From IMG/VR virus record IMGVR_UViG_3300014208_000111, positions 1 through 27,555 of that record: a stretch of DNA of 27,555 nt. One strand, given 5' to 3'. Positions 3,649-22,587 of the stretch are shown in pieces (positions within the stretch are counted from its first letter, which is position 1; each line of letters begins with the position of its first letter). The translations under genes and the position numbers were made by a program. Source of the stretch: a virus. Lineage: Duplodnaviria; Caudoviricetes. The notes below the pieces were generated by a model. That model had not been told where the DNA came from and ran no database searches. It worked only from the letters and a program-made list of their open reading frames with translations.

Positions 3649-4203
3649 TTAATTATTCCTTATCAACTTATAAACTGTTGGTCGTGATAGCTCTAATTCT
3701 TGACTGATATGAATTACTGATAAGCCCTGAGAACGCAGATATACTGCACGTTCTGCCTTGGATTCATCGGTGAATCTTCGGCCTAATTTTACCCCGGCTT
3801 TAATTGCTGCGTCCATTCCTTCACGTTGTCTTTGTTTTATCAATGTACGTTCAAATTCAGCGAATGCGCCCATTACTTGCAGCAAGAGTTTATCCATTGC
3901 GTTATTAGTTGCTGAGAAGATTAAGTTTTCTTTATGAAATTTAACTGTAGCCCCTTTATCGGTTAATTGTTGAACAATTTCCTGCAAGTCACGCAAATTC
4001 CGCGCTAAACGGTCAATACTGTGAACGTGAAGCGTGTCACCCTTGCGAATGTGTTTGATGCATTCTTCGAGTTGAGGCCGATTTCTCGTGCCTCCTGATA
4101 ATTTTTCTTCGTACTTGATATCAAGCTCTATACCATCGAGTTGTCTATCAGTATTTTGACCGGAACTTGATACCCGGATATAACCTATATTTGCGCCTAT
4201 CAT
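3649..4203 (-). CDS. Small serine recombinase (resolvase/invertase family)
   Basis: IGYIRVSSSGQNTDRQL catalytic motif, SIDRLARN, FAEFERTLIKQRQREG, GRR and a C-terminal HTH; 184 aa. Confidence 0.95.
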   Translation of the reverse strand: MIGANIGYIRVSSSGQNTDRQLDGIELDIKYEEKLSGGTRNRPQLEECIKHIRKGDTLHVHSIDRLARNLRDLQEIVQQLTDKGATVKFHKENLIFSATNNAMDKLLLQVMGAFAEFERTLIKQRQREGMDAAIKAGVKLGRRFTDESKAERAVYLRSQGLSVIHISQELELSRPTVYKLIRNN

Positions 4204-4448
4204 TGTTTATCCTCAACAAAAGTTAGTGATTCGTTATAAAATTTAGTGTCTTTGTGATCATATCGTTGGTCTGTAACATGTTTAACTAAAAACCCGTGTC
4301 TATATCGCGCCTCTTCTGTCCATGTAACCGAAAGAATGCTATTGTCAGTGTCCCATTCTTCTTGATAAGAAATTGTTTTCCACTCTAAATGTTTCATAAA
4401 ATTAACTCCCATAAATTGATATAACCGCCAGAACCGCGCAGTAAGCAC
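4200..4448 (-). CDS. Hypothetical protein (true start probably the internal MKHLEW)
   Basis: Stop overlaps the resolvase start; GGGAG lies upstream of the internal Met. Confidence 0.55.
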   Translation of the reverse strand: MLTARFWRLYQFMGVNFMKHLEWKTISYQEEWDTDNSILSVTWTEEARYRHGFLVKHVTDQRYDHKDTKFYNESLTFVEDKQ

Positions 4449-4487
4449 ATATAACCAGCATGAACATTATTAAGTCGAATCGTTCCA

Positions 4488-4694
4488 TTATGCTGCCTTA
4501 TCTTTTACTAATAATTCATAGGCCATAATGATATTATCAAGGAATTCGTTGCACTCGCTTACCGTCCATCCATAGGCTTGCTGATAGCGATAAATTGATG
4601 CTTCTCTATTTTCTTGGGCTAATTCAGCCGTTATTTTTATCCATGTATCCGGCTCTTTGAATAGCATGTGTTGAATTGCTGTATCTACGTTCAT
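4488..4694 (-). CDS. Hypothetical protein
   Basis: ORF-track gene with start reassigned to ATG 4694, which follows the CTGTGAGAA leader motif. Confidence 0.65.
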   Translation of the reverse strand: MNVDTAIQHMLFKEPDTWIKITAELAQENREASIYRYQQAYGWTVSECNEFLDNIIMAYELLVKDKAA

Positions 4695-4727
4695 TTTTAG
4701 TGTTCTCACAGTTTGTTAATTAAATTG

Positions 4728-4877
4728 TTATGCGTTGAAATATTTAATAATCATCGGGAATAGAAAGCAGGTCACTACGATTGTTATCAATGCGTTCAAG
4801 CGATTAATAGTTTTCTCGTTAATGCGCTCTAACATTCTGATTCGTACTTCGTGGTCGATATAATCTTCTTTAGTCAT
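4728..4877 (-). CDS. Small coiled-coil/C-terminal TM protein, HEVxxR paralog 3 (49 aa; not in ORF track)
   Basis: Manual translation MTKEDYIDHEVRIRMLERINEKTINRLNALITIVVTCFLFPMIIKYFNA; leader motif upstream. Confidence 0.75.
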   Translation of the reverse strand: MTKEDYIDHEVRIRMLERINEKTINRLNALITIVVTCFLFPMIIKYFNA

Positions 4878-4894
4878 TTTATTCTCACAGGTCG

Positions 4895-5092
4895 TTAAAA
4901 AAACTTAGTTATAATTAGACCGCCAAATAATGCGATCATCGTTCCAACTGTCCATTTGAATTGATCGTGTAATTCTTTGGACAATTCTTTAAATGAGCTT
5001 TTCAATTCATTAAAATTCCTCTCTTGTATCTTGAATTGCTCGCTATGAAGTCTTAATTTAACTTCGTGTTCGATGTACTCGTCTTTAGTCAT
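4895..5092 (-). CDS. Small coiled-coil/C-terminal TM protein, HEVxxR paralog 2
   Basis: MTKDEYIEHEVKLRLHSEQF...WTVGTMIALFGGLIITKFF. Confidence 0.75.
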   Translation of the reverse strand: MTKDEYIEHEVKLRLHSEQFKIQERNFNELKSSFKELSKELHDQFKWTVGTMIALFGGLIITKFF

Positions 5093-5102
5093 GATTAACC
5101 CC

Positions 5103-5291
5103 TTAAGTTAATTTATAGCTATGTAATAAAATAGGCAGTATGAGACTGGTTACTCCAATCCCTAAGATACTGAATAAAAGCCGCTTTATGCCGCGAATGT
5201 CATTGTCAACACGATTAAAATGCTCAGAATGAAGACGCAATTTAACCTCATGCTCGATAAAGTGCTCTTGTGTTTTTGTAAATTCTGTCAT
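5103..5291 (-). CDS. Small coiled-coil/C-terminal TM protein, HEVxxR paralog 1
   Basis: HFIEHEVKLRLHSEHF...LLFSILGIGVTSLILPILL. Confidence 0.75.
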   Translation of the reverse strand: MTEFTKTQEHFIEHEVKLRLHSEHFNRVDNDIRGIKRLLFSILGIGVTSLILPILLHSYKLT

Positions 5292-5303
5292 TTTGGTTTC
5301 CCC

Positions 5304-5633
5304 TTATTTATAAAGCATTTCGTGTAATGTTTTAGCGCAAGAAGTCCAGTAACTGTCTACCTGTTCGCTTTCTTCTTCGTCGGTTACAATGCGACCCGAT
5401 TCATGCTCCAACCATTCAATGATGTCAAAATCCATGTAGGGAATTTGAACGGTACTGCATAAGCCTCTTAACCAGTATTCTAATAATTTATCGATGGATT
5501 TTCTGCTCATATTTTTATTGGGTAAAGCCATTTCATCCTCGAATATAGTTTTTACCATTACAAGACGTTCAATCGTTGTGCCTGTAATTTCTTCATTGAT
5601 GCTATCGAGTATTAATTGTTTATAGTTAGTCAT
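5304..5633 (-). CDS. Hypothetical protein
   Basis: TAATG-coupled to the upstream ORF. Confidence 0.65.
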   Translation of the reverse strand: MTNYKQLILDSINEEITGTTIERLVMVKTIFEDEMALPNKNMSRKSIDKLLEYWLRGLCSTVQIPYMDFDIIEWLEHESGRIVTDEEESEQVDSYWTSCAKTLHEMLYK

Positions 5634-5836
5634 TATTCAATCCCACATTTAGTACAGCGCCATACTTCGCGTTCAGTGTATGTATTTTCAAAATCATGAT
5701 CACAATAGTTATCAATCATTGATTCAAGCTTTGCTATTAGTTTTGGATCGCCACACTCTCCGCAGCATTGCTCAGTCTTTAAAGCCCAGTCTAATAATTG
5801 ACTAAGCTCGTCTAATGTAAAATTGTTCTCGCTCAT
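5633..5836 (-). CDS. Small Cys-rich protein, 'FTxxEL...IDNYCxH' family
   Basis: Shares motifs with 9930..10163 and 11451..11615. Confidence 0.7.
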   Translation of the reverse strand: MSENNFTLDELSQLLDWALKTEQCCGECGDPKLIAKLESMIDNYCDHDFENTYTEREVWRCTKCGIE

Positions 5837-6093
5837 TTCAATACCTCAATAAAATACTCGATAGCGTCACCGTGACCCCGAAAGTTATAATCCCACTTGA
5901 TTAGCCTGTAGTTTTCATCACCCCTAGTATCACCGCAAGTGCACCCACTAATTCCACATAAATCCGAGATTATTCGTTTAAATGTTGTTACTGATATTTT
6001 GTATGCTTTTCGATTAAAAAACTGTTCAGGTTCATTTATTAGATGAACCACACTCGAAGAGTTATGGAAATTATTTGTTAATGTTATTTTCAT
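5833..6093 (-). CDS. Hypothetical protein
   Basis: ATGA overlaps on both sides; LCGISGCTCG motif. Confidence 0.65.
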   Translation of the reverse strand: MKITLTNNFHNSSSVVHLINEPEQFFNRKAYKISVTTFKRIISDLCGISGCTCGDTRGDENYRLIKWDYNFRGHGDAIEYFIEVLK

Positions 6094-6248
6094 GCTAAAA
6101 CCTCTGTAATTTCATACTCGCCACGATTTTCATCATAATCCAACCCTTGATCGTCTAAGTTCCAACATAGAAACTCTTCTGCATCATCGAATGAATCAAA
6201 TTCATGAGGGAAAACCGTATTGTCTGCCCAGCCTTTAATAAGCCACAT
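6090..6248 (-). CDS. Small acidic hypothetical protein
   Basis: Start reassigned to ATG 6248, which follows TAAGGGGTTAATC. Confidence 0.6.
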   Translation of the reverse strand: MWLIKGWADNTVFPHEFDSFDDAEEFLCWNLDDQGLDYDENRGEYEITEVLA

Positions 6249-6258
6249 GATTAACCCC

Positions 6259-6693
6259 TTATTGATTATCAAATACATGATACAATTGACCATTAACCGT
6301 TAACTCTTCCTCACCGCCATCATAGCGGTTAAAGTGGTGTCCATAACCGTCATGGCTCACTAATTGTTCCGCCAGTTCTTTAATGTGGTCGCTTGTCATC
6401 TTCTCGCCTAACTCTTCACATTTATCCGATTGCTGCGCTAGTTCAATCAGGAATTCCGGCCAGCCTGTAGCTTCCGCAATACACCATGAGTTAAAGCAAC
6501 CAAGGATATATTTATCGCCTGATAGTTCATCGACAACTATTTCATCAATAGAATCGGTGTGAATGAATCGAACGCCATCGACTTCAAAGTCTGGATTGTC
6601 GTTGTTAATTTCAAGAGTAACTTCACGCCAGTATGGGCTAGACATTAAATCGTCGCAGAAGGATTTTATTTGTTTTACGGTTGTATAGTTCAT
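6259..6693 (-). CDS. Acidic hypothetical protein
   Basis: 144 aa; leader motif upstream; DGYGHHFNRYDG motif. Confidence 0.7.
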   Translation of the reverse strand: MNYTTVKQIKSFCDDLMSSPYWREVTLEINNDNPDFEVDGVRFIHTDSIDEIVVDELSGDKYILGCFNSWCIAEATGWPEFLIELAQQSDKCEELGEKMTSDHIKELAEQLVSHDGYGHHFNRYDGGEEELTVNGQLYHVFDNQ

Positions 6694-8389: not shown

Positions 8390-8971
8390 TTGGGTAAAAT
8401 TTACAGGAAAATTATGAAAGAAGACTTTAGTTTAGATAGCCTACACTACCATGGTCTGTGTACTGCCATCGAGCACGGAGGAATTCTTTGCTTCAACAAG
8501 AAACATTCTAAAGGATATTGCCATAAGCATTATGATAGAGTTAGAGCGCATGGTTCCGTAGACCTTCCTATCAGACAGCCTAAGAAGTGTAAATTCATTG
8601 ATTGTGATAACCCTCATCATTGCAAGGGATATTGCAAGAAACACTTCAGAAGGAAGCATTATAAGTCCAAAGTAAAATGTTCTGTATATGGATGTGACAA
8701 CCCTAAGCATGGGCAACGTCTGTGTACCACTCACCAATTACGATTGAAAAAGCATGGCGATGTAAATACAGTTCTTAAGAGTGGTTTCGAAAAAGGCTAC
8801 ATTCCACCATGGACAGGTGATGTTCTGCATAAGCATTGTATAGTTCCCGGATGTGATGTGAAGCATGGCGACCAGAAGAGAAATCTGAAGAAGGGGTTAT
8901 GTAATAAGCATTACCTACGATGGCTAAGACATGGTGATTACAATATTACTTTGATCCGTCGGGGAAAGTGA
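8390..8971 (+). CDS. Cys/His-repeat protein (about 4 repeats of C..GC....(KG)xCxKHY.R..RHG)
   Basis: Repeats visible in the translation; similar to repeats often fused to phage HNH endonucleases, but no HNH core is seen; start may be 8414. Confidence 0.7.
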   Translation: MGKIYRKIMKEDFSLDSLHYHGLCTAIEHGGILCFNKKHSKGYCHKHYDRVRAHGSVDLPIRQPKKCKFIDCDNPHHCKGYCKKHFRRKHYKSKVKCSVYGCDNPKHGQRLCTTHQLRLKKHGDVNTVLKSGFEKGYIPPWTGDVLHKHCIVPGCDVKHGDQKRNLKKGLCNKHYLRWLRHGDYNITLIRRGK

Positions 8972-13358: not shown

Positions 13359-13442
13359 GCTCCAATGGTGGAATGGTATACACAGAGGACTTAAAATCCT
13401 CTCACTTAGGTGATGAAGGTTCAAGTCCTTCTTGGAGCACCA
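13359..13442 (+). tRNA. tRNA-Leu(TAA)
   Basis: GCTCCAA/TTGGAGC-ACCA; anticodon arm GAGGA-CTTAAAA-TCCTC; long variable arm; T loop TTCAAGT. Confidence 0.93.
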
Positions 13443-13446
13443 TTTC

Positions 13447-13532
13447 GGAGAAGACATCTAATTGGTATGATACCCGGCTGTAACCCGGAGGTCGGCTAGC
13501 CCGTCAAGGTTCGAATCCTTGCTTCTCCACCA
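13447..13532 (+). tRNA. tRNA-Tyr(GTA)
   Basis: GGAGAAG/CTTCTCC-ACCA; CCGG-CTGTAAC-CCGG; long variable arm; CAAGG-TTCGAAT-CCTTG. Confidence 0.9.
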
Positions 13533-13669: not shown

Positions 13670-14038
13670 ATGACCGAGATATTCGTGTTCGGTAGCAACC
13701 TATTGGGAATCCATAAACGTGGAGCAGCATTGTGCGCACTTAAAGAACATGGAGCTTTACTCGGAAGAGGCTTTGGACGCCAAGGAAATAGCTATGCCAT
13801 CCCGACTAAAGAAACGCCATATAAATCCTTATCACTAATCGACATTAATGTTTATGTAGCCGAATTTATTATTTATGCAAATTTACCCCATATAACTGAA
13901 TTAATCTTCAACGTAACTCCAATCGGCTGTGGTCTAGCCGGATATACTCCAGAAGACATTGCACCCATGTTTTACTATGCTCAAGGCTTAGTTAACGTCA
14001 AATTACCTATAGAATTCACTCAAATTTTACAAAAATAG
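13670..14038 (+). CDS. A1S_2505-family (macro-domain-like) phage protein
   Basis: EIFVFGSNLLGIH..GAA..A...G...G.G.QGNSYAIPTK...VTPIGCGLAGY signature. Confidence 0.8.
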   Translation: MTEIFVFGSNLLGIHKRGAALCALKEHGALLGRGFGRQGNSYAIPTKETPYKSLSLIDINVYVAEFIIYANLPHITELIFNVTPIGCGLAGYTPEDIAPMFYYAQGLVNVKLPIEFTQILQK

Positions 14039-14085
14039 ATCTAAATTCACTATAAATAGCATTACTCTTGTGCTACGTTACAGTT

Positions 14086-14129
14086 GTGACACATTTCTTA
14101 GCTTCCTTGAAATCCTTTGAATGTGTCAC
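14086..14129. promoter_or_regulatory. Inverted repeat in the terL leader
   Basis: GTGACACATT...AATGTGTCAC, 10-bp arms. Confidence 0.45.
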
Positions 14130-14170
14130 GAGTATTGCATGATGCAAATTAGGCAAAGGATTGCCACTCT

Positions 14171-16792
14171 ATGGATAAAACGTTACAAACACGTCTGGAA
14201 CAAGCGGAACTTGCGGCCAAACTAAAGGGTAGTCTATTACTCTTTATTCAGGCGTTTTTTCCGATCCTAACAGGAAGAGACTTTATTGTTTCTAAACCTA
14301 TAGGCCGTGAATCTCACTTTATAACCATCTGTCGCGCTTTAACGAAGTGCACAAGACTCCAAGCCCTTAGATTACTAGTCAATGTTCCTCCGGGGCATGG
14401 CAAGTCAATTATGGTTAGCTTCTGGATTGCATGGTGCTATGCAAAATGGCCTGATTGTAATTTCCTATATATTTCTTATTCAAAAACACTTGCAACGAGC
14501 CATACAGAAAATATCAAACGGATAATGTCTCTTAGTCAGTACAAAACCTTATTTAATGTTCGCTTACGTGAAGACTCACAAGCAAAAGATGCGTTTACAA
14601 CAGAAGCCGGAGGCACAGTTGCTAGTTTTGGTTCCGCAGGGGCGATTACAGGCCGTAACGCCGGGTTACCAGGATTGGATAGATTTAGCGGTGCCGTTTT
14701 ATGTTTTCCTTATGATGAATATGTACAGACAGAAATTGGCGCGATTAAGATTGGAGAAATAGTCGATAAGAAGTTAGATGTTAAAGTCTATTCAGTAAAT
14801 TTGGAAACACGAGAAATTCAATTAAAGCCTATTATAGGTCATTTTCAAAACCCGGGAAGCCCTATAATTGAAGTAGAATTTAATGATGGCGCAATCATAC
14901 GATGTACGCCAGATCATAAAATATGGACTGATAATAGAGGGTGGATTGAGGCTCAGGATTTATTGGCCACTGATGAGCTTTTTACGCCAACGCCAGATGG
15001 TTCTTTGAGGAAAATCCAGTATTTTGGCAACCTTACGCTGAGAGATACTCAAATCTCTCAAAATTTCCAATTGCCGGTTAGTAAGGCGAGTAAATTTGCA
15101 AGCCACAATGCGCTTTCCAACTATTTTTCTAGCCTCTTCAGTTTCAAGAGCACGACTATCTCCGCGTCTTATTTTCTGCACAGTCAAATCAAGTATATTA
15201 AATTTTTTAGCCAATTCTTTCGCACCGAGAGGACTGAAAACGATTTCAATAACGTCTTGGGTAGAAAGTTTGGCACAGGGATGCTTTTCGCCCATAGAAA
15301 AGGTTCCATGATTAATCGAATCTTGAATATTCTCTGCTCTTGTACCATAGCAAAGATTTTCAGGTCTATTGTCGGTTCCAACCCCATTTATATGCCTAAC
15401 ATCATGCCCATCAGGCTGCGCACCGTGGAAAGCCCATGCGACCAATTGATGGGCAAAAACATTTCTCTTAATAGAATCACATGTAATTCTAGTCCAATAA
15501 TATTTCCCAGAGGAATTAAGGGTAAGTTTCTTGATTTTCTGAGGCTCTATGCGGTGACTTCGATTGTCGCCATAATAAATAGTGCGCTGTTCCGAGCGAA
15601 TTCTTCCAAAGCTGGATGCGCTATAAAGTCCATCAAGCCCAGGAATAAGTCTCCACTCTTCATTCGTCATATTGGCCATGTTGATAAATCCTATTGTATT
15701 AACGTCGAAAGCAATCATAACTTCTTTTGCGGAACAAGCGAAGACAATTATACTCTTGTTCAAAACTGCGACGATATGCATAAACCAGACGAAGTTCATT
15801 CGGATTTAGTACGAGAATCAGTAATAACAAATTTCCGAGAAACCATCCAACAACGGCCACGGGGTATCAATGTTCCCATAGTATTCATTGGTCAGCGATT
15901 ACATGAGCAAGACCTGCCCGCCTATTTCATTGCCGGAGAAGACGGGTACGAATGGGACAAGGTAATCTTAAAATCATTGGATGATGCAGGAAATGCGCTT
16001 TATCCAGAAGCCTTCCCCAAAGAGATGCTGCTGATTCGGCAGGAAAAAGACCGATATGTATTTGCGGCACAACATCAACAAGACCCACAACCCGCTGGCG
16101 GTGGTCTATATATGCCAGAAGACTTCCCTCTGTTAGCGGAAGAACCCGAATTCTCAATGACCTTCATCACAGCCGATACAGCTGAGACAGAAGACCCGCG
16201 TAATGACGCTACCGTATTCTCGTTCTGGGGTCTTTACAATATTGAGACGCAAGGACGCAAAACTGGAATTATGGGCCTTCATTGGCTGGCTTGTCGTGAA
16301 ATGCGTGTGGAACCTAAACGCCTTGAAAATGAATTCTTAGATTTTTGGCAAGATTGCGCCCGACACAAACAACCGCCTATGGTCGCTTTCATTGAGAAGA
16401 AATCAACTGGAGTCACCCTATTATCCATCCTCAAGGGTATGCGTGGCCTGAAGGTACGCGAAATCGAACGTACTCGGAAGTCCGGCTCTAAATCACAACG
16501 CTTCATCGATATTCAGCCCTATGTGGCTAGCAAACAAGTATCTCTTCCAGCCCACGGGGTACATACGGAAATGTGCGTCAACCATATGAAACGCATAACC
16601 AATAATGACAGTCATGCTCATGACGATATTGCAGATACCTGCGCGGACGCTGTACGGATTGCATTAATCGATCTCATGCTGATTGGCTATACACATAGAG
16701 ATTCACTATGGAAGCCATCGGCCAGCAAAGCAATTAATCACTTCAATAAATTAACGGAATTAAAACAAAAAGCCTATGAAAAAAGGAATTGA
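14171..16792 (+). CDS. terL: Terminase large subunit, intein-containing precursor (873 aa; about 518 aa after splicing)
   Basis: Walker A NVPPGHGKS, Walker B GAVL|CDD rejoined across the intein, GQRLHEQDL, RNase H-like TADTA...IEKKSTG...HDDIAD; directly upstream of the portal. Confidence 0.95.
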   Translation: MDKTLQTRLEQAELAAKLKGSLLLFIQAFFPILTGRDFIVSKPIGRESHFITICRALTKCTRLQALRLLVNVPPGHGKSIMVSFWIAWCYAKWPDCNFLYISYSKTLATSHTENIKRIMSLSQYKTLFNVRLREDSQAKDAFTTEAGGTVASFGSAGAITGRNAGLPGLDRFSGAVLCFPYDEYVQTEIGAIKIGEIVDKKLDVKVYSVNLETREIQLKPIIGHFQNPGSPIIEVEFNDGAIIRCTPDHKIWTDNRGWIEAQDLLATDELFTPTPDGSLRKIQYFGNLTLRDTQISQNFQLPVSKASKFASHNALSNYFSSLFSFKSTTISASYFLHSQIKYIKFFSQFFRTERTENDFNNVLGRKFGTGMLFAHRKGSMINRILNILCSCTIAKIFRSIVGSNPIYMPNIMPIRLRTVESPCDQLMGKNISLNRITCNSSPIIFPRGIKGKFLDFLRLYAVTSIVAIINSALFRANSSKAGCAIKSIKPRNKSPLFIRHIGHVDKSYCINVESNHNFFCGTSEDNYTLVQNCDDMHKPDEVHSDLVRESVITNFRETIQQRPRGINVPIVFIGQRLHEQDLPAYFIAGEDGYEWDKVILKSLDDAGNALYPEAFPKEMLLIRQEKDRYVFAAQHQQDPQPAGGGLYMPEDFPLLAEEPEFSMTFITADTAETEDPRNDATVFSFWGLYNIETQGRKTGIMGLHWLACREMRVEPKRLENEFLDFWQDCARHKQPPMVAFIEKKSTGVTLLSILKGMRGLKVREIERTRKSGSKSQRFIDIQPYVASKQVSLPAHGVHTEMCVNHMKRITNNDSHAHDDIADTCADAVRIALIDLMLIGYTHRDSLWKPSASKAINHFNKLTELKQKAYEKRN
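14702..15766 (+). mobile_element. Intein (355 aa) in the terminase Walker B motif
   Basis: Block A CFPYDEYVQT, block B IRCTPDHKIWT, GWIEAQDL, block F SYCINVESNHNFF, C-terminal VQN followed by Cys+1. Confidence 0.93.
14960..15679 (-). CDS. NUMOD4-HNH homing endonuclease encoded antisense inside the intein
   Basis: NUMOD4 EEWRLIPGLDGLYSASSFGRIRS; HNH core AHQLVAWAFHG...VRHINGVGTDNRPENLCYGTRAENIQD; GEKHPCAKL and C-terminal HTH repeats; AGGA 9 nt before ATG 15679. Confidence 0.9.
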   Translation of the reverse strand: MANMTNEEWRLIPGLDGLYSASSFGRIRSEQRTIYYGDNRSHRIEPQKIKKLTLNSSGKYYWTRITCDSIKRNVFAHQLVAWAFHGAQPDGHDVRHINGVGTDNRPENLCYGTRAENIQDSINHGTFSMGEKHPCAKLSTQDVIEIVFSPLGAKELAKKFNILDLTVQKIRRGDSRALETEEARKIVGKRIVACKFTRLTNRQLEILRDLSISQRKVAKILDFPQRTIWRWRKKLISGQ

Positions 16793-18924
16793 CTATGGCA
16801 ATAGCACGGAAACACACCAGCCAGCTGGATAAGATAAAGGCTTCTGTAGAACAGGCTTATACCTATTTTAGGCCAAATTATGAACGATATCACCAGTTTA
16901 AACGCTTTGTTTATAAATCAACGCTTACTGAAGACGACATAGCTGTACTGGCTACACTCGGACGCCCGCAAATCGAGTTCAATATGATGGAGGCTTATAT
17001 CTCCAGATTGCGCGGAGAATTTTCCCGCATGGAACCGGGATTCATTGTTCGCGCTCAGGATGGCATAGAGAGTATCGATCCCAGACTATTATCCATTTTA
17101 GAAGCTCATTTTAGGTCAATATTAAATGATTCAGATAATGATGGCTTTAGCTACGATGTCTATACCGATTTGCTGATTGGCGGCTTCTCGGTGGTCGAGG
17201 TTTATACGGATTACATTTCACAAATGTCTATGGATCAACGTATCTGCACTGAACGGGTATTTGACCCAACACTATGCGGATTCGACCCCTTAGCACGTAG
17301 GTCGCATAAAGGAGATGGTAACTTTTGTTTCCAACTATTCCCAAAAGAAGCCGAAGAGGCAGAGAAAGAGTATGGCTCAGACGCTACTAAAGGACTTAAA
17401 TATGCCCGAAGCTTTGCGGGGTTTAATTGGTCATATCGAGCGGCAAGAAAAGATATTGTATTGCTCTGCGATTATTACAAAAAAGACTTTAAGAAAGAGA
17501 AGATAACAAAGCTTTCTAATGGTCGAACAATTTCCGTGAAACATTATGAAGAACTGATGCAACGCTGGGATGAGGCCGGATTCATTGAGCAACCACCGCA
17601 ACCCATCGGAAAAATGCGCGAAACACTTTTAGAGGAAATCACGCGATATCGATTTTCTGGTGTGAATCTAATTGATGTATCTAAAACGAATTACAAGATG
17701 CTTCCACTGGTCTTCTTCGATGGAAACAGCGCAGTACTACGAGACAATAACGACTCCACAGCAGAGCAGATGACACGCCCGTACATCTATAATGTGCGCG
17801 ACGCTCAACGCCTGAAGAACTATGCCGGACAATCACTGGCTAACGAGCTTGAAAACACTGTAGAGCATAAATTCATTGCCTCCGTTGAATCAATCCCAGA
17901 AGATTATATTGATGCCTATATTAATGTCCAGAAACCCGGAACATTGCTCTATAATGCATTCTTAGATGGCGATCCCAACGTAGCTTTAAATCCACCAAGG
18001 GAAATTGTTCGCACCCCAATACCGCCTGAAATCAGCGCAACATTCCAGATGTCGGATAATCTGATTCAAGGAATATTAGGAAGTTATGATGCGGCCCTTG
18101 GGATTCAAAATAATGAACTCTCAGGCGTAGCCATCATGCAGGGCGCAATGCACTCCAATGCAGCCGCTATGCCATACACAGTGGGCTACATGAAAGGACT
18201 TAATCGAGTATGCCAGATTATTTTAGACCTGATTCCTAAGTACTATGTAACGCCAAGAAGCATCCCAATAGTTCATCCTGATGGAAAGCGTTCTTATGAA
18301 GTAATTAATAAGAAAGGCAATCCGTTCATGGATTACAATCCAATGAGCCTTGAAGTTAAAGTTGAAGCTGGCGTGAACTTTGCGGTTCAGAAGCAAATTA
18401 GCCTTGAGACTATAATTCAATTGATGCAAACCTCAGAATCATTTGCAGCCTTCATCAATACTAAAGGACTTGGCATACTTCTTGATAATATTGATATACG
18501 TGGCATCGAAGGATTACGTCAGGCCGCAGCACAATTCATGCAGGAAACGCAGCAAAAACAATCTCAGGCTGAACAGATGGCGCAACAGCAAGCAGCACAA
18601 CAACTCGATCCAAAAGAAGTCATGGCAATGCAAGCTAAAGCGGAAATGGCCAAGGTCGAGCAGAAACGTGAACAGGCTCAGATGCAAGCGCAAGTCGATT
18701 TAACTAAGATTGCAACTGATGATGCCGTTAAAAACAAACAGGCGGATATTGACTATCTGAAAGTGATGGCCGATATTCAAGGGGCAGAAGTGGATGCTGC
18801 AATGAAACAAGAGAAGGTCGATGCTGAAAACGCAAGAACCGCAGTTGATATGGCCCTCGATGTATCTAAGCATCACCATGAAGTAAAGCAAGCAAATAAA
18901 CCCGAACCAAAGAAGAGTAAATAA
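16789..18924 (+). CDS. Portal protein (P22-like)
   Basis: About 710 aa directly after terL; GRPQIEFN and SGVAI motifs; long Q/A-rich C-terminal helix as in the P22 gp1 barrel. Confidence 0.85.
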   Translation: MTMAIARKHTSQLDKIKASVEQAYTYFRPNYERYHQFKRFVYKSTLTEDDIAVLATLGRPQIEFNMMEAYISRLRGEFSRMEPGFIVRAQDGIESIDPRLLSILEAHFRSILNDSDNDGFSYDVYTDLLIGGFSVVEVYTDYISQMSMDQRICTERVFDPTLCGFDPLARRSHKGDGNFCFQLFPKEAEEAEKEYGSDATKGLKYARSFAGFNWSYRAARKDIVLLCDYYKKDFKKEKITKLSNGRTISVKHYEELMQRWDEAGFIEQPPQPIGKMRETLLEEITRYRFSGVNLIDVSKTNYKMLPLVFFDGNSAVLRDNNDSTAEQMTRPYIYNVRDAQRLKNYAGQSLANELENTVEHKFIASVESIPEDYIDAYINVQKPGTLLYNAFLDGDPNVALNPPREIVRTPIPPEISATFQMSDNLIQGILGSYDAALGIQNNELSGVAIMQGAMHSNAAAMPYTVGYMKGLNRVCQIILDLIPKYYVTPRSIPIVHPDGKRSYEVINKKGNPFMDYNPMSLEVKVEAGVNFAVQKQISLETIIQLMQTSESFAAFINTKGLGILLDNIDIRGIEGLRQAAAQFMQETQQKQSQAEQMAQQQAAQQLDPKEVMAMQAKAEMAKVEQKREQAQMQAQVDLTKIATDDAVKNKQADIDYLKVMADIQGAEVDAAMKQEKVDAENARTAVDMALDVSKHHHEVKQANKPEPKKSK

Positions 18925-21921: not shown

Positions 21922-22587
21922 ATGAGAAAATTAGAATGTAATAAATGCGGAAAGGAAAAGGAAGGAAGTTATATTTGGGAATCATGGTGCGCTGACTGTT
22001 CGAATGAACGCAGAAAAGTTGCTAAAGCGGCTAAGAGAGCGGCCAAAGATTTGCCTGAATGGGGTTCTGGACGCGATCCTAAATGCAAGACATGTAGAGC
22101 GGTTAAAGAAGAACCATACATGAACGGAAGTCTTTGTAGGCAATGTAAGCTGGAGAAAGCTAAAGCAGATTACATTAAGAAGAAAGCCGAAGAGGGAACG
22201 CCATCACGTCGTTCAGGAAGAAATCCCATTTGCAAATGTGGGGCGACTAAAGAAAATCCTGACAGTGGTTTTTGTAGGCTATGCTCTAATGAGAAGAAAC
22301 GTTTACTACGCGAGAAGAACAAACAAGATCCGGATTGGGTGGCAGCAGAGACTGAAAAGAATATTGCTCGTTATAGAGATGATCTAGAGCAGGACATGAA
22401 ACGCTTATGTCGTAAAGCAACATTCTCCGCTTTAAGAAAAGGAATCTTGAAATATGCTCCTTGCGAAGTTTGCGGTATTGACGACTCATCAGTACAGGCT
22501 CACCATGATGATTATAATAAGCCTTTAGAAGTACGCTGGCTATGCTCTTGGCACCATGCAGAGCACCACAAGAACGAAAAGAAGTAA
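21922..22587 (+). CDS. Cys-rich protein with a C-terminal HNH-like domain
   Basis: Three CxxC...CxxC units, then PCEVCG...QAHHDDYNKPLEVRWLCSWHHAEHH. Confidence 0.7.
   Translation: MRKLECNKCGKEKEGSYIWESWCADCSNERRKVAKAAKRAAKDLPEWGSGRDPKCKTCRAVKEEPYMNGSLCRQCKLEKAKADYIKKKAEEGTPSRRSGRNPICKCGATKENPDSGFCRLCSNEKKRLLREKNKQDPDWVAAETEKNIARYRDDLEQDMKRLCRKATFSALRKGILKYAPCEVCGIDDSSVQAHHDDYNKPLEVRWLCSWHHAEHHKNEKK

Follow-up and report, generated by a model that had tools for sequence, protein, structure and literature searches.

The 27,555-nucleotide (nt) Caudoviricetes record IMGVR_UViG_3300014208_000111, analysed over its full length and hereafter called the window, is a phage contig with replication, terminase, portal, scaffold and capsid genes. 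Its large terminase gene (terL, protein TerL) contains an intein at the Walker B motif, and the reverse strand of this intein carries an intact, selected HNH endonuclease gene of the I-HmuI kind. We assign a probability of about 0.8 to this reading, in which self-splicing is predicted and both antisense expression of the nuclease and homing are likely. The layout had been proposed in an earlier note made from the sequence alone, and profile searches of both strands agree with it: a splicing family was found on the plus strand, and NUMOD4, HNH_3 and HTH_23 on the minus strand. An assembly inversion, which that note had named as a possible artefact, was not seen, as two Logan contigs (either of which may be the source of the window) cover positions 13800–17200 without a break and with 0 differences, and 32 other members of the family described below share the layout. 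Sequencing runs X3 and X4 gave short unrelated pieces only, and no RNA run was listed as containing the stretch. Coordinates are listed in Table 1.

The intein lies just ahead of the Walker B Asp-Asp and has the splicing residues Cys1, Thr69 and His72 of block B, terminal Asn355 and a Cys at +1. Cys1 is invariant in 22/22 aligned inteins, and Thr69 and His72 are invariant as well. In the AlphaFold2 model, 10-residue means of pLDDT (predicted local distance difference test) are 87–95 in both splicing halves, which resemble solved inteins (Foldseek), with a root-mean-square deviation of 1.4–1.7 over ~95 columns for the N-terminal half; the Hint fold of a class 1 intein is present in the model. 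The ratio of nonsynonymous to synonymous divergence (dN/dS) of the N-terminal domain is ~0.08 in the TerL frame. By sequence and fold, the element is a class 1 intein; its splicing blocks are intact, as originally claimed, and its splicing is predicted. Class 3 inteins lack an N-terminal nucleophile and are marked by a Trp-Cys-Thr triplet; this class was rejected, since Cys1 is present and the block F Cys is accompanied by Ile and Val at the other two triplet positions. A fractured gene or split intein was also rejected, the host open reading frame (ORF) of 873 amino acids (aa) being unbroken and a stop being found in locus L290 only. The linker between the two halves had been described as junk-like and devoid of LAGLIDADG or HNH motifs. 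Indeed, a Pfam search of its plus frame gave no family match, nuclease or other, and residues 97–313 have a pLDDT below 50.

The minus-strand protein of 239 aa shows Pfam matches to NUMOD4 (E 5e-9), HNH_3 (E 4e-14) and, short of the cut-off, HTH_23 (E 1.2e-4); its structure is modelled with confidence (mean pLDDT 81.8). I-HmuI (PDB 1U3E) is its sole significant PDB match by profile (E 1e-17) and the sole Foldseek match of the model under E 0.001 (7e-6). The equivalents of I-HmuI His75 and Asn96 are invariant, the NUMOD4 plus HNH_3 architecture is that of an I-HmuI-type homing endonuclease, and an Asp three residues past the HNH Asn is kept in 21/21 motif-matched intein-borne proteins. The complete NUMOD4-HNH-helix-turn-helix (HTH) frame claimed earlier is borne out by these matches and by the I-HmuI-like fold, with the HTH_23 match below cut-off. 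Its limits were only partly right: the start precedes block F, but the stop does not fall exactly at the end of the N-terminal splicing domain. The stop codon is the antisense of intein Leu87, so that the gene runs several codons into the confidently folded N-terminal domain; in other members, it lies at intein residues 73–90. At the opposite end, the first 13–14 HNH codons overlap the folded C-terminal strand of the intein. The minus frame is also open upstream to an ATG at 15799 (279-aa ORF), which was rejected as the start because stops close this extension in most members.

Table 1. Features of the interrupted terL gene and of its antisense nuclease gene (window coordinates)
Feature	Position	Strand	Basis or remark
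TerL ORF	14171–16792	+	873 aa, ORF call
TerL N-extein, ATPase up to Walker B strand	14171–14701	+	PHROG terminase large subunit, E 1.8e-73
Intein, 355 aa, Cys1 to Asn355	14702–15766	+	Pfam Intein_splicing PF14890, E 2.3e-11; alignment with 21 relatives
N-terminal splicing domain, ~residues 1–95, blocks A and B	14702–14986	+	pLDDT 87–95; Foldseek to solved inteins, E 5e-7
In-frame linker, residues 97–313, predicted unstructured	14990–15640	+	pLDDT <50; plus-frame dN/dS ~0.9
C-terminal splicing domain with blocks F and G and the strand that precedes F	15641–15766	+	Intein alignment, AlphaFold2 model
TerL C-extein, opening with Cys+1 then Walker B Asp-Asp	15767–16792	+	ORF, PHROG, junction comparison
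NUMOD4-HNH-HTH-HTH endonuclease gene, 239 aa	14960–15679	−	In codon register with TerL on the opposite strand; ATG complementary to the intein His326 codon (CAT)
Shine-Dalgarno-like AGGA	15689–15692	−	Spelled by block F Lys-Ser-Tyr codons; 9 nt before ATG
Candidate −10 hexamer TATGAT	15714–15719	−	Antisense of block F Asn-His-Asn; putative function
Candidate −35 hexamer, 17-nt spacer	15737–15742	−	3/6 matches here; 5–6/6 in several relatives
60-nt downstream extein tract, candidate co-conversion tract	15767–15826	+	Common to intein-bearing alleles: Cys+1, Met+4, synonymous codons

The TerL and HNH frames are codon-aligned, and a TerL stop corresponds to TTA, CTA or TCA in the HNH gene. None of these codons is used there, against 12.8 expected from the other genes of the window (P ~8e-8), as anticipated for two-strand coding in which the host frame is kept open. 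Five free-standing relatives of the nuclease contain 15, 3, 14, 14 and 19 of them versus 12.4, 6.9, 10.9, 9.6 and 15.0 expected, i.e., about the expected rate, with L115 below it. Across the 33 members, the TerL frame is open where 209 forbidden codons would be expected in total. The codon-aligned register would persist since TTA, CTA and TCA each have synonyms. When the HNH part is compared between the window and locus L001, identity is 72% in the HNH reading and 43% in the TerL reading. Here, dN is 0.22 and dS 2.52 (near saturation) in the HNH frame (dN/dS ~0.09), while the TerL frame of the same part gives 0.38 and 0.42 (dN/dS ~0.9). The corresponding ratio of proportions (pN/pS) is lower in the HNH frame in 13/14 pairs, which are not independent, the exception being a near-identical pair; two unsaturated pairs give 0.10 vs 1.63 and 0.10 vs 2.87. 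The comparison proposed in the earlier note thus came out as foreseen: the minus frame is under purifying selection as a protein, and the plus-frame linker is selected only for staying open. Upstream of terL, the window encodes tRNA-Leu(UAA) and tRNA-Tyr (13359–13532, +); the former reads TTA, a codon common in the genes of this phage and absent from the HNH gene.

Opposite the ATG of the HNH gene stands an intein His codon that precedes block F, and this codon is CAT in 33/33 members, the His having been picked as the nearest within 9 codons irrespective of its codon. Elsewhere, CAT accounts for 146/259 extein and 14/23 block B His codons. In L281 and L284, where the usual His is gone, the HNH ORF starts at another His codon. 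The AGGA reported earlier is indeed present ahead of the ATG, and pairing with the anti-Shine-Dalgarno motif, which served for scoring, exceeds the synonymous mean in 18/21 members. Further upstream, several members have TTGACA, TTGACT or TTGACC 17 nt before TATGAT. With 5 close copies and 3 decayed copies set aside, the summed promoter score of 28 members is 228 versus a synonymous null of 197 ± 4.8, and 26/28 lie above their own mean. Members have 3.7 matches at −35 versus 2.7 in 44 unrelated inteins, whereas the −10 level is the same; the −10 therefore seems largely a by-product of block F, and the −35 looks selected. A promoter scan of 14000–16800 returned 4 sites versus 6.6 expected, and the candidate was not among them. 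Judged from these comparisons, a likely promoter (within blocks F and G; weak in the window copy), the ribosome site and the start would be spelled by codons of the C-terminal splicing domain, and the cassette would therefore be self-contained. The invariant start codon and the family promoter score favour the separately started gene envisaged at the outset. A perfect TATAAT lies upstream of the candidate promoter (15747–15752, −) in this copy only; L001 differs.

A search with the intein region returned 21 proteins, all but one apparently terminases, and a search with the HNH alignment returned 80 viral loci. Three scans with a 10-member intein alignment (80, 80 and 19 loci), used because the 22-member alignment was too diverse for locus searching, added members. 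The 33 members that were read exclude duplicates, the cut locus L352, L290 and decayed copies; some are closely related, and L291 is cut at its start. Of the 80 HNH-relative loci, 26 lie within a TerL intein, where each one is antisense and in codon register, and 0 stops occur in the aligned antisense frame of any of them; 7 (5 distinct) adjoin an intein-free terL; and 47 lie elsewhere, 3 of which are G+C-rich and have an open antisense frame without an intein. Five registers are occupied, with Cys+1 followed by 0, 1, 2 or 3 residues before Asp-Asp or placed ~14 residues upstream; they are our own reading of the junctions, the starts of L130, L131 and L141 having been shifted by hand. The family includes a GenBank coliphage, Escherichia phage BUCT618 (OM735461.1), in which a 323-aa intein and a 223-aa antisense NUMOD4-HNH protein are intact. 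The element lies in the only annotated TerL among 60 features, and its HNH gene is unannotated. A literature search found no paper on BUCT618, and no close intein-free partner was present among 81 phage records and 19 E. coli genomes with a match; the best match is ~67% over 47% of the gene. On sequence comparison, the antisense-HNH intein is an old, widespread family in distantly related terminases and not a one-off.

In a tree of 45 related TerLs, from which 37 columns around the insertion site were dropped, intein-bearing and empty TerLs are mixed, and the expected patchy distribution was therefore observed. The 12 intein-bearing TerLs need 10 changes, 7 of them forced by starred branches, and their monophyly is rejected by the approximately unbiased (AU) test (p 1.7e-5). 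Splicing domains are up to 60% identical in exteins that are only 30–31% identical. Synonymous divergence of the intein block is below that of the exteins in the pairs window–L001, window–L273 and L130–L131. For window–L001, it is 0.85–0.88 in the exteins, 0.60 in the N-terminal domain and 0.25 in the first 20 downstream codons; for L130–L131, it is 0.69–0.74 versus 0.34 in HNH.

The natural target differs from the simply joined junction proposed in the earlier note. In 94 empty alleles read of 96 distinct ones, the +1 residue is Ile in 56, Leu in 20, Met in 11, Val in 5 and Cys in 2 (L048 and L117), so that 92/94 lack the Cys present in 33/33 members. Homing co-converts flanks (PMC2988022), and for I-HmuI a nick 3 nt downstream of the insertion site is reported, occupied alleles being nicked as well (PMC3017599). 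Given the scarcity of Cys among empties, homing likely imports Cys+1 by downstream co-conversion. The first 20 downstream codons are synonymous-identical at 16/19 (window–L001) and 16/18 (window–L273) sites versus 38–55% in the flanks, and 2/125 comparable empty pairs reach a synonymous identity of 0.8 in this tract. At +4, Ala or Ser occurs in 57/89 plain empties, 0/12 intein-bearing alleles (Fisher p 2e-5) and 0/5 alleles beside a free-standing relative (p 0.008), the p values being uncorrected for kinship; Ala does occur at +4 in members of other TerL families. The intein would thus splice itself and the junk linker out of the precursor, leaving a TerL of 518 aa (873 − 355). The nuclease, likely made from its own antisense transcript, likely nicks intein-free terL, by analogy with I-HmuI just downstream of the insertion point, and repair would copy the element in. 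Co-conversion would bring in Cys+1 and a changed +4 codon, the latter perhaps protecting the occupied allele.

Free-standing HNH genes stand head-to-head with empty terL in L114, L115/116, L117, L123/124 and L134. A quick HNH tree with 66 rows places L114 and L115 together with L001, L113 and the window (SH-aLRT 96, an approximate likelihood ratio test of the Shimodaira–Hasegawa type), and L117, L123/124 and L134 with L291 (SH-aLRT 91); intein-borne and terL-adjacent proteins without L151 form a weakly supported group (70). Since the free-standing genes are nested at two places among intein-borne ones, the nuclease may have switched between the two states more than once, and the terL neighbours may be ancestors or escapees. 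HK97 gp74 is a packaging-type HNH protein; such an identity was rejected, as the architecture differs and 0/91 empty loci from the terL query (79 with at least 800 nt upstream) have such a neighbour. Decayed forms also exist. The nuclease core (NUMOD4 and HNH) is lost from L193, in which an antisense HTH ORF (1830–2192, −; 120 aa) remains open with its start intact; L203 and L354 keep NUMOD4 relics, and L141 is without part of the core. L275–L277 likewise have an antisense HTH ORF that stays open, its start intact, after the loss of NUMOD4 and HNH. All three short members read at the DNA level keep antisense HNH relics; two further short forms, P0011 and P0019, were seen as proteins only, and a pristine, relic-free mini-intein was not found at the DNA level. 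The mini-inteins are therefore products of loss. Of the alleles anticipated at the Walker B site, empty and antisense-HNH ones were found, and mini-inteins only in decayed form; the proposal that an HNH gene invaded a mini-intein accordingly found no backing, and that step can only be surmised. Read in the TerL frame, the linker of L290 has a TAA at positions 879–881, and a sense codon stands at this point in L204, which is near-identical; the two changes in the HNH frame of L290 are conservative, and no clear restart was seen. The allele may be dead, the stop may be an error due to low coverage, or it may mark a stage on the way to a split intein.

Several observations weigh against the reading of an active, homing element. 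The penultimate intein residue is not His but Gln in the window copy (Ser in 24/33 members). In I-HmuI, Asp74 is a metal ligand. The equivalent position, counted on the alignment, is not acidic here: among 29 intein-borne proteins examined, 21 were motif-matched, and of these, 20 have Arg and 1 has Cys, though the same is true of most free-standing relatives (Arg in 17/29 matched). The block F His is CAT in 17/17 cases, and the CAT bias is therefore not peculiar to the start. Taken individually, neither the ribosome site (p 0.08) nor the promoter (p 0.59) of the window copy exceeds its null significantly. The 44 control inteins also slightly exceed theirs (308 vs 295 ± 5.8), TATGAT is spelled anyway in 21/37 of the control inteins, and the kinship of the members means that the family promoter totals overstate significance. 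The shared 60-nt tract comes from three alleles, two of them close; synonymous identity is also raised in the upstream bins −60 to −40, and constraint rather than co-conversion is a possible explanation.

The alternatives divide over homing and over splicing. The intein might splice and no longer home in this lineage, being inherited vertically and lost by recombination with intein-free phages, with HNH kept for another benefit, e.g., the nicking of competing phages (marker exclusion) or regulation. Within the window's clade of 23, the AU test rejects neither holding the 5 intein-bearing TerLs together (p 0.057) nor holding the 18 empties together (p 0.068), and splicing-domain and extein identities track each other (90/89, 84/89, 79/81 and 74/80); recent homing of the window copy is therefore not shown by the trees. 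The open HTH-only ORF retained by L193 without its nuclease and the persistence of free-standing relatives without an intein fit this account too. Yet the lower synonymous divergence of the intein block, the polyphyly in the wider tree, the at least five registers and the decay relics, which are expected once homing stops, make it improbable. Less improbable, but still unlikely, is that the element invades only rare alleles already bearing Cys at +1, the downstream tract being conserved for other reasons and nothing being imported. The Cys+1 of L048 and L117 allows for this, as does a tract known from three alleles. However, occupied alleles arise at 7–10 places in the tree, which is hard to reconcile with 2/94 Cys empties; several of them are sister to empties without Cys (e.g., L069, L100, L102 and L061), and Met or Leu at +4 travels with the intein.

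Judged from the coding evidence, it is very improbable that the insert leaves at the RNA level like a group I intron, or that the TerL frame is open by chance in a defective phage. Group I introns are known to harbour I-HmuI-like nucleases (PMC3017599), and L290 does have a stop in the TerL frame. Against this stand the (near) invariance of the splicing residues across 22 members, the constrained N-terminal domain, the frame kept open in all 33 members and the presence of the element in the sole annotated TerL of an isolated phage, BUCT618. Beyond the preferred reading of a spliced intein with a selected antisense nuclease, a wider scenario is tentatively offered, at somewhat less than even odds: the two-strand element makes its own landing site, colonises terminases devoid of the nucleophile and has slid to five registers, while the nuclease alternates between free and intein-borne states, leaving a record of collaborative homing.

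The layout is not that of textbooks, as the earlier note stated, and it has been reported before. Gosselin, Arsenault and Gogarten (bioRxiv 10.1101/2025.01.02.630785) describe antisense LAGLIDADG or VSR-like nucleases in actinobacteriophage inteins, including TerL inteins, with HNH in frame only as far as the accessible text goes, and cite Gorbalenya 1998 for antisense LAGLIDADG in Synechocystis DnaX and Chloroflexus. Like those elements, the present one is a contiguous intein with an opposite-strand nuclease ORF between the splicing blocks and an unstructured in-frame region; terminase is among the hosts there, the spread is patchy, and an origin from a free-standing nuclease gene is proposed. 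As far as its accessible text goes, however, the antisense nucleases of that preprint are not NUMOD4-HNH proteins, and their ORFs are typically found beyond the splicing domain, whereas in the present inteins this domain contains the start, the ribosome site, the first codons and the likely promoter. The present inteins also differ from those described there in forming a single old family of non-actinobacterial phages that occupies five neighbouring registers at Walker B, with Cys+1 nearly absent from empty alleles. The literature search found no antisense HNH intein and yielded just that preprint and unrelated entries, subscription journals not being covered and preprint supplements possibly listing further cases; within that range, the antisense-nuclease layout is already known, and its HNH version is what is new here.

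The nuclease resembles the nicking HNH homing endonucleases I-HmuI and I-BasI (PDB 1U3E) in its NUMOD4 and HNH core and in the His75 and Asn96 equivalents. It differs in being borne by an intein rather than a group I intron, in its Arg or Cys at the Asp74 position, in a longer C-terminus with two predicted HTH units and in its likely target, terL. Mycobacteriophage TerL inteins, including TerL1-e, also lie in the ATPase domain at Walker B; they splice, and two cut intein-free terL, where, according to PMC5050341, the intein protein itself had a nuclease domain with which the cutting was associated. TerL1-e is discussed there among class 3 inteins, unlike the window intein, which begins with Cys. 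In the ShiLan domain (PMC11855218), an HNH is likewise hidden in another frame of a phage gene whose own frame stays open; as described in the accessible text, it lies out of frame rather than antisense, without a splicing domain. A ShiLan-type insertion was rejected for the window, where intein blocks are present. Fractured genes (PMC2677866, Dassa 2009) also place a separate nuclease gene between intein halves, but in those described there the host gene is broken into two ORFs, and the nucleases are of the GIY-YIG or Vsr-like kinds.

Other inserts and nuclease genes were seen alongside. In L006, a close TerL that is empty at Walker B (4001–6517, +), the nuclease domain contains a second intein-like insert, which Pfam did not call as an intein; in the middle of this insert lies a same-strand, out-of-frame HNH_3 ORF (5662–6312, +; E 1e-12). 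P0005, P0012 and P0016 have second inserts similar to that of L006. Same-strand, out-of-frame HNH_3 ORFs also occur in other inteins, in L249/L251 (2785–3405) and L257 (2632–3276), one of them in a T4-type terminase. In L206, L209–L213, L215, L218 and many others, an intein N-terminal domain is followed immediately by a stop, with the C-terminal domain in a later ORF; these are likely split inteins or fractured genes. The window itself has a nuclease-like HNH gene (8390–8971, +; PHROG 5351), an endonuclease gene directly 3′ of the major head gene (21922–22587, +; PHROG 2340) and a resolvase/DNA invertase gene (3649–4203, −). We take the ORF upstream of terL in L001 (3259–3609, +) to resemble an IS66 accessory protein.

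Inteins with antisense nucleases have been thought extremely rare. Here, a widespread phage family that annotation misses has them as its usual form, and they offer a clean natural example of an antisense overlap that has lasted for long, with one frame selected as a protein and the other only to remain open. The family bears on how inteins acquire nucleases, on the expression of a gene nested on the opposite strand, and on whether an intein needs a pre-existing Cys, Ser or Thr at its target. The cultured E. coli phage BUCT618 makes nuclease acquisition, nested expression and the Cys requirement directly testable.

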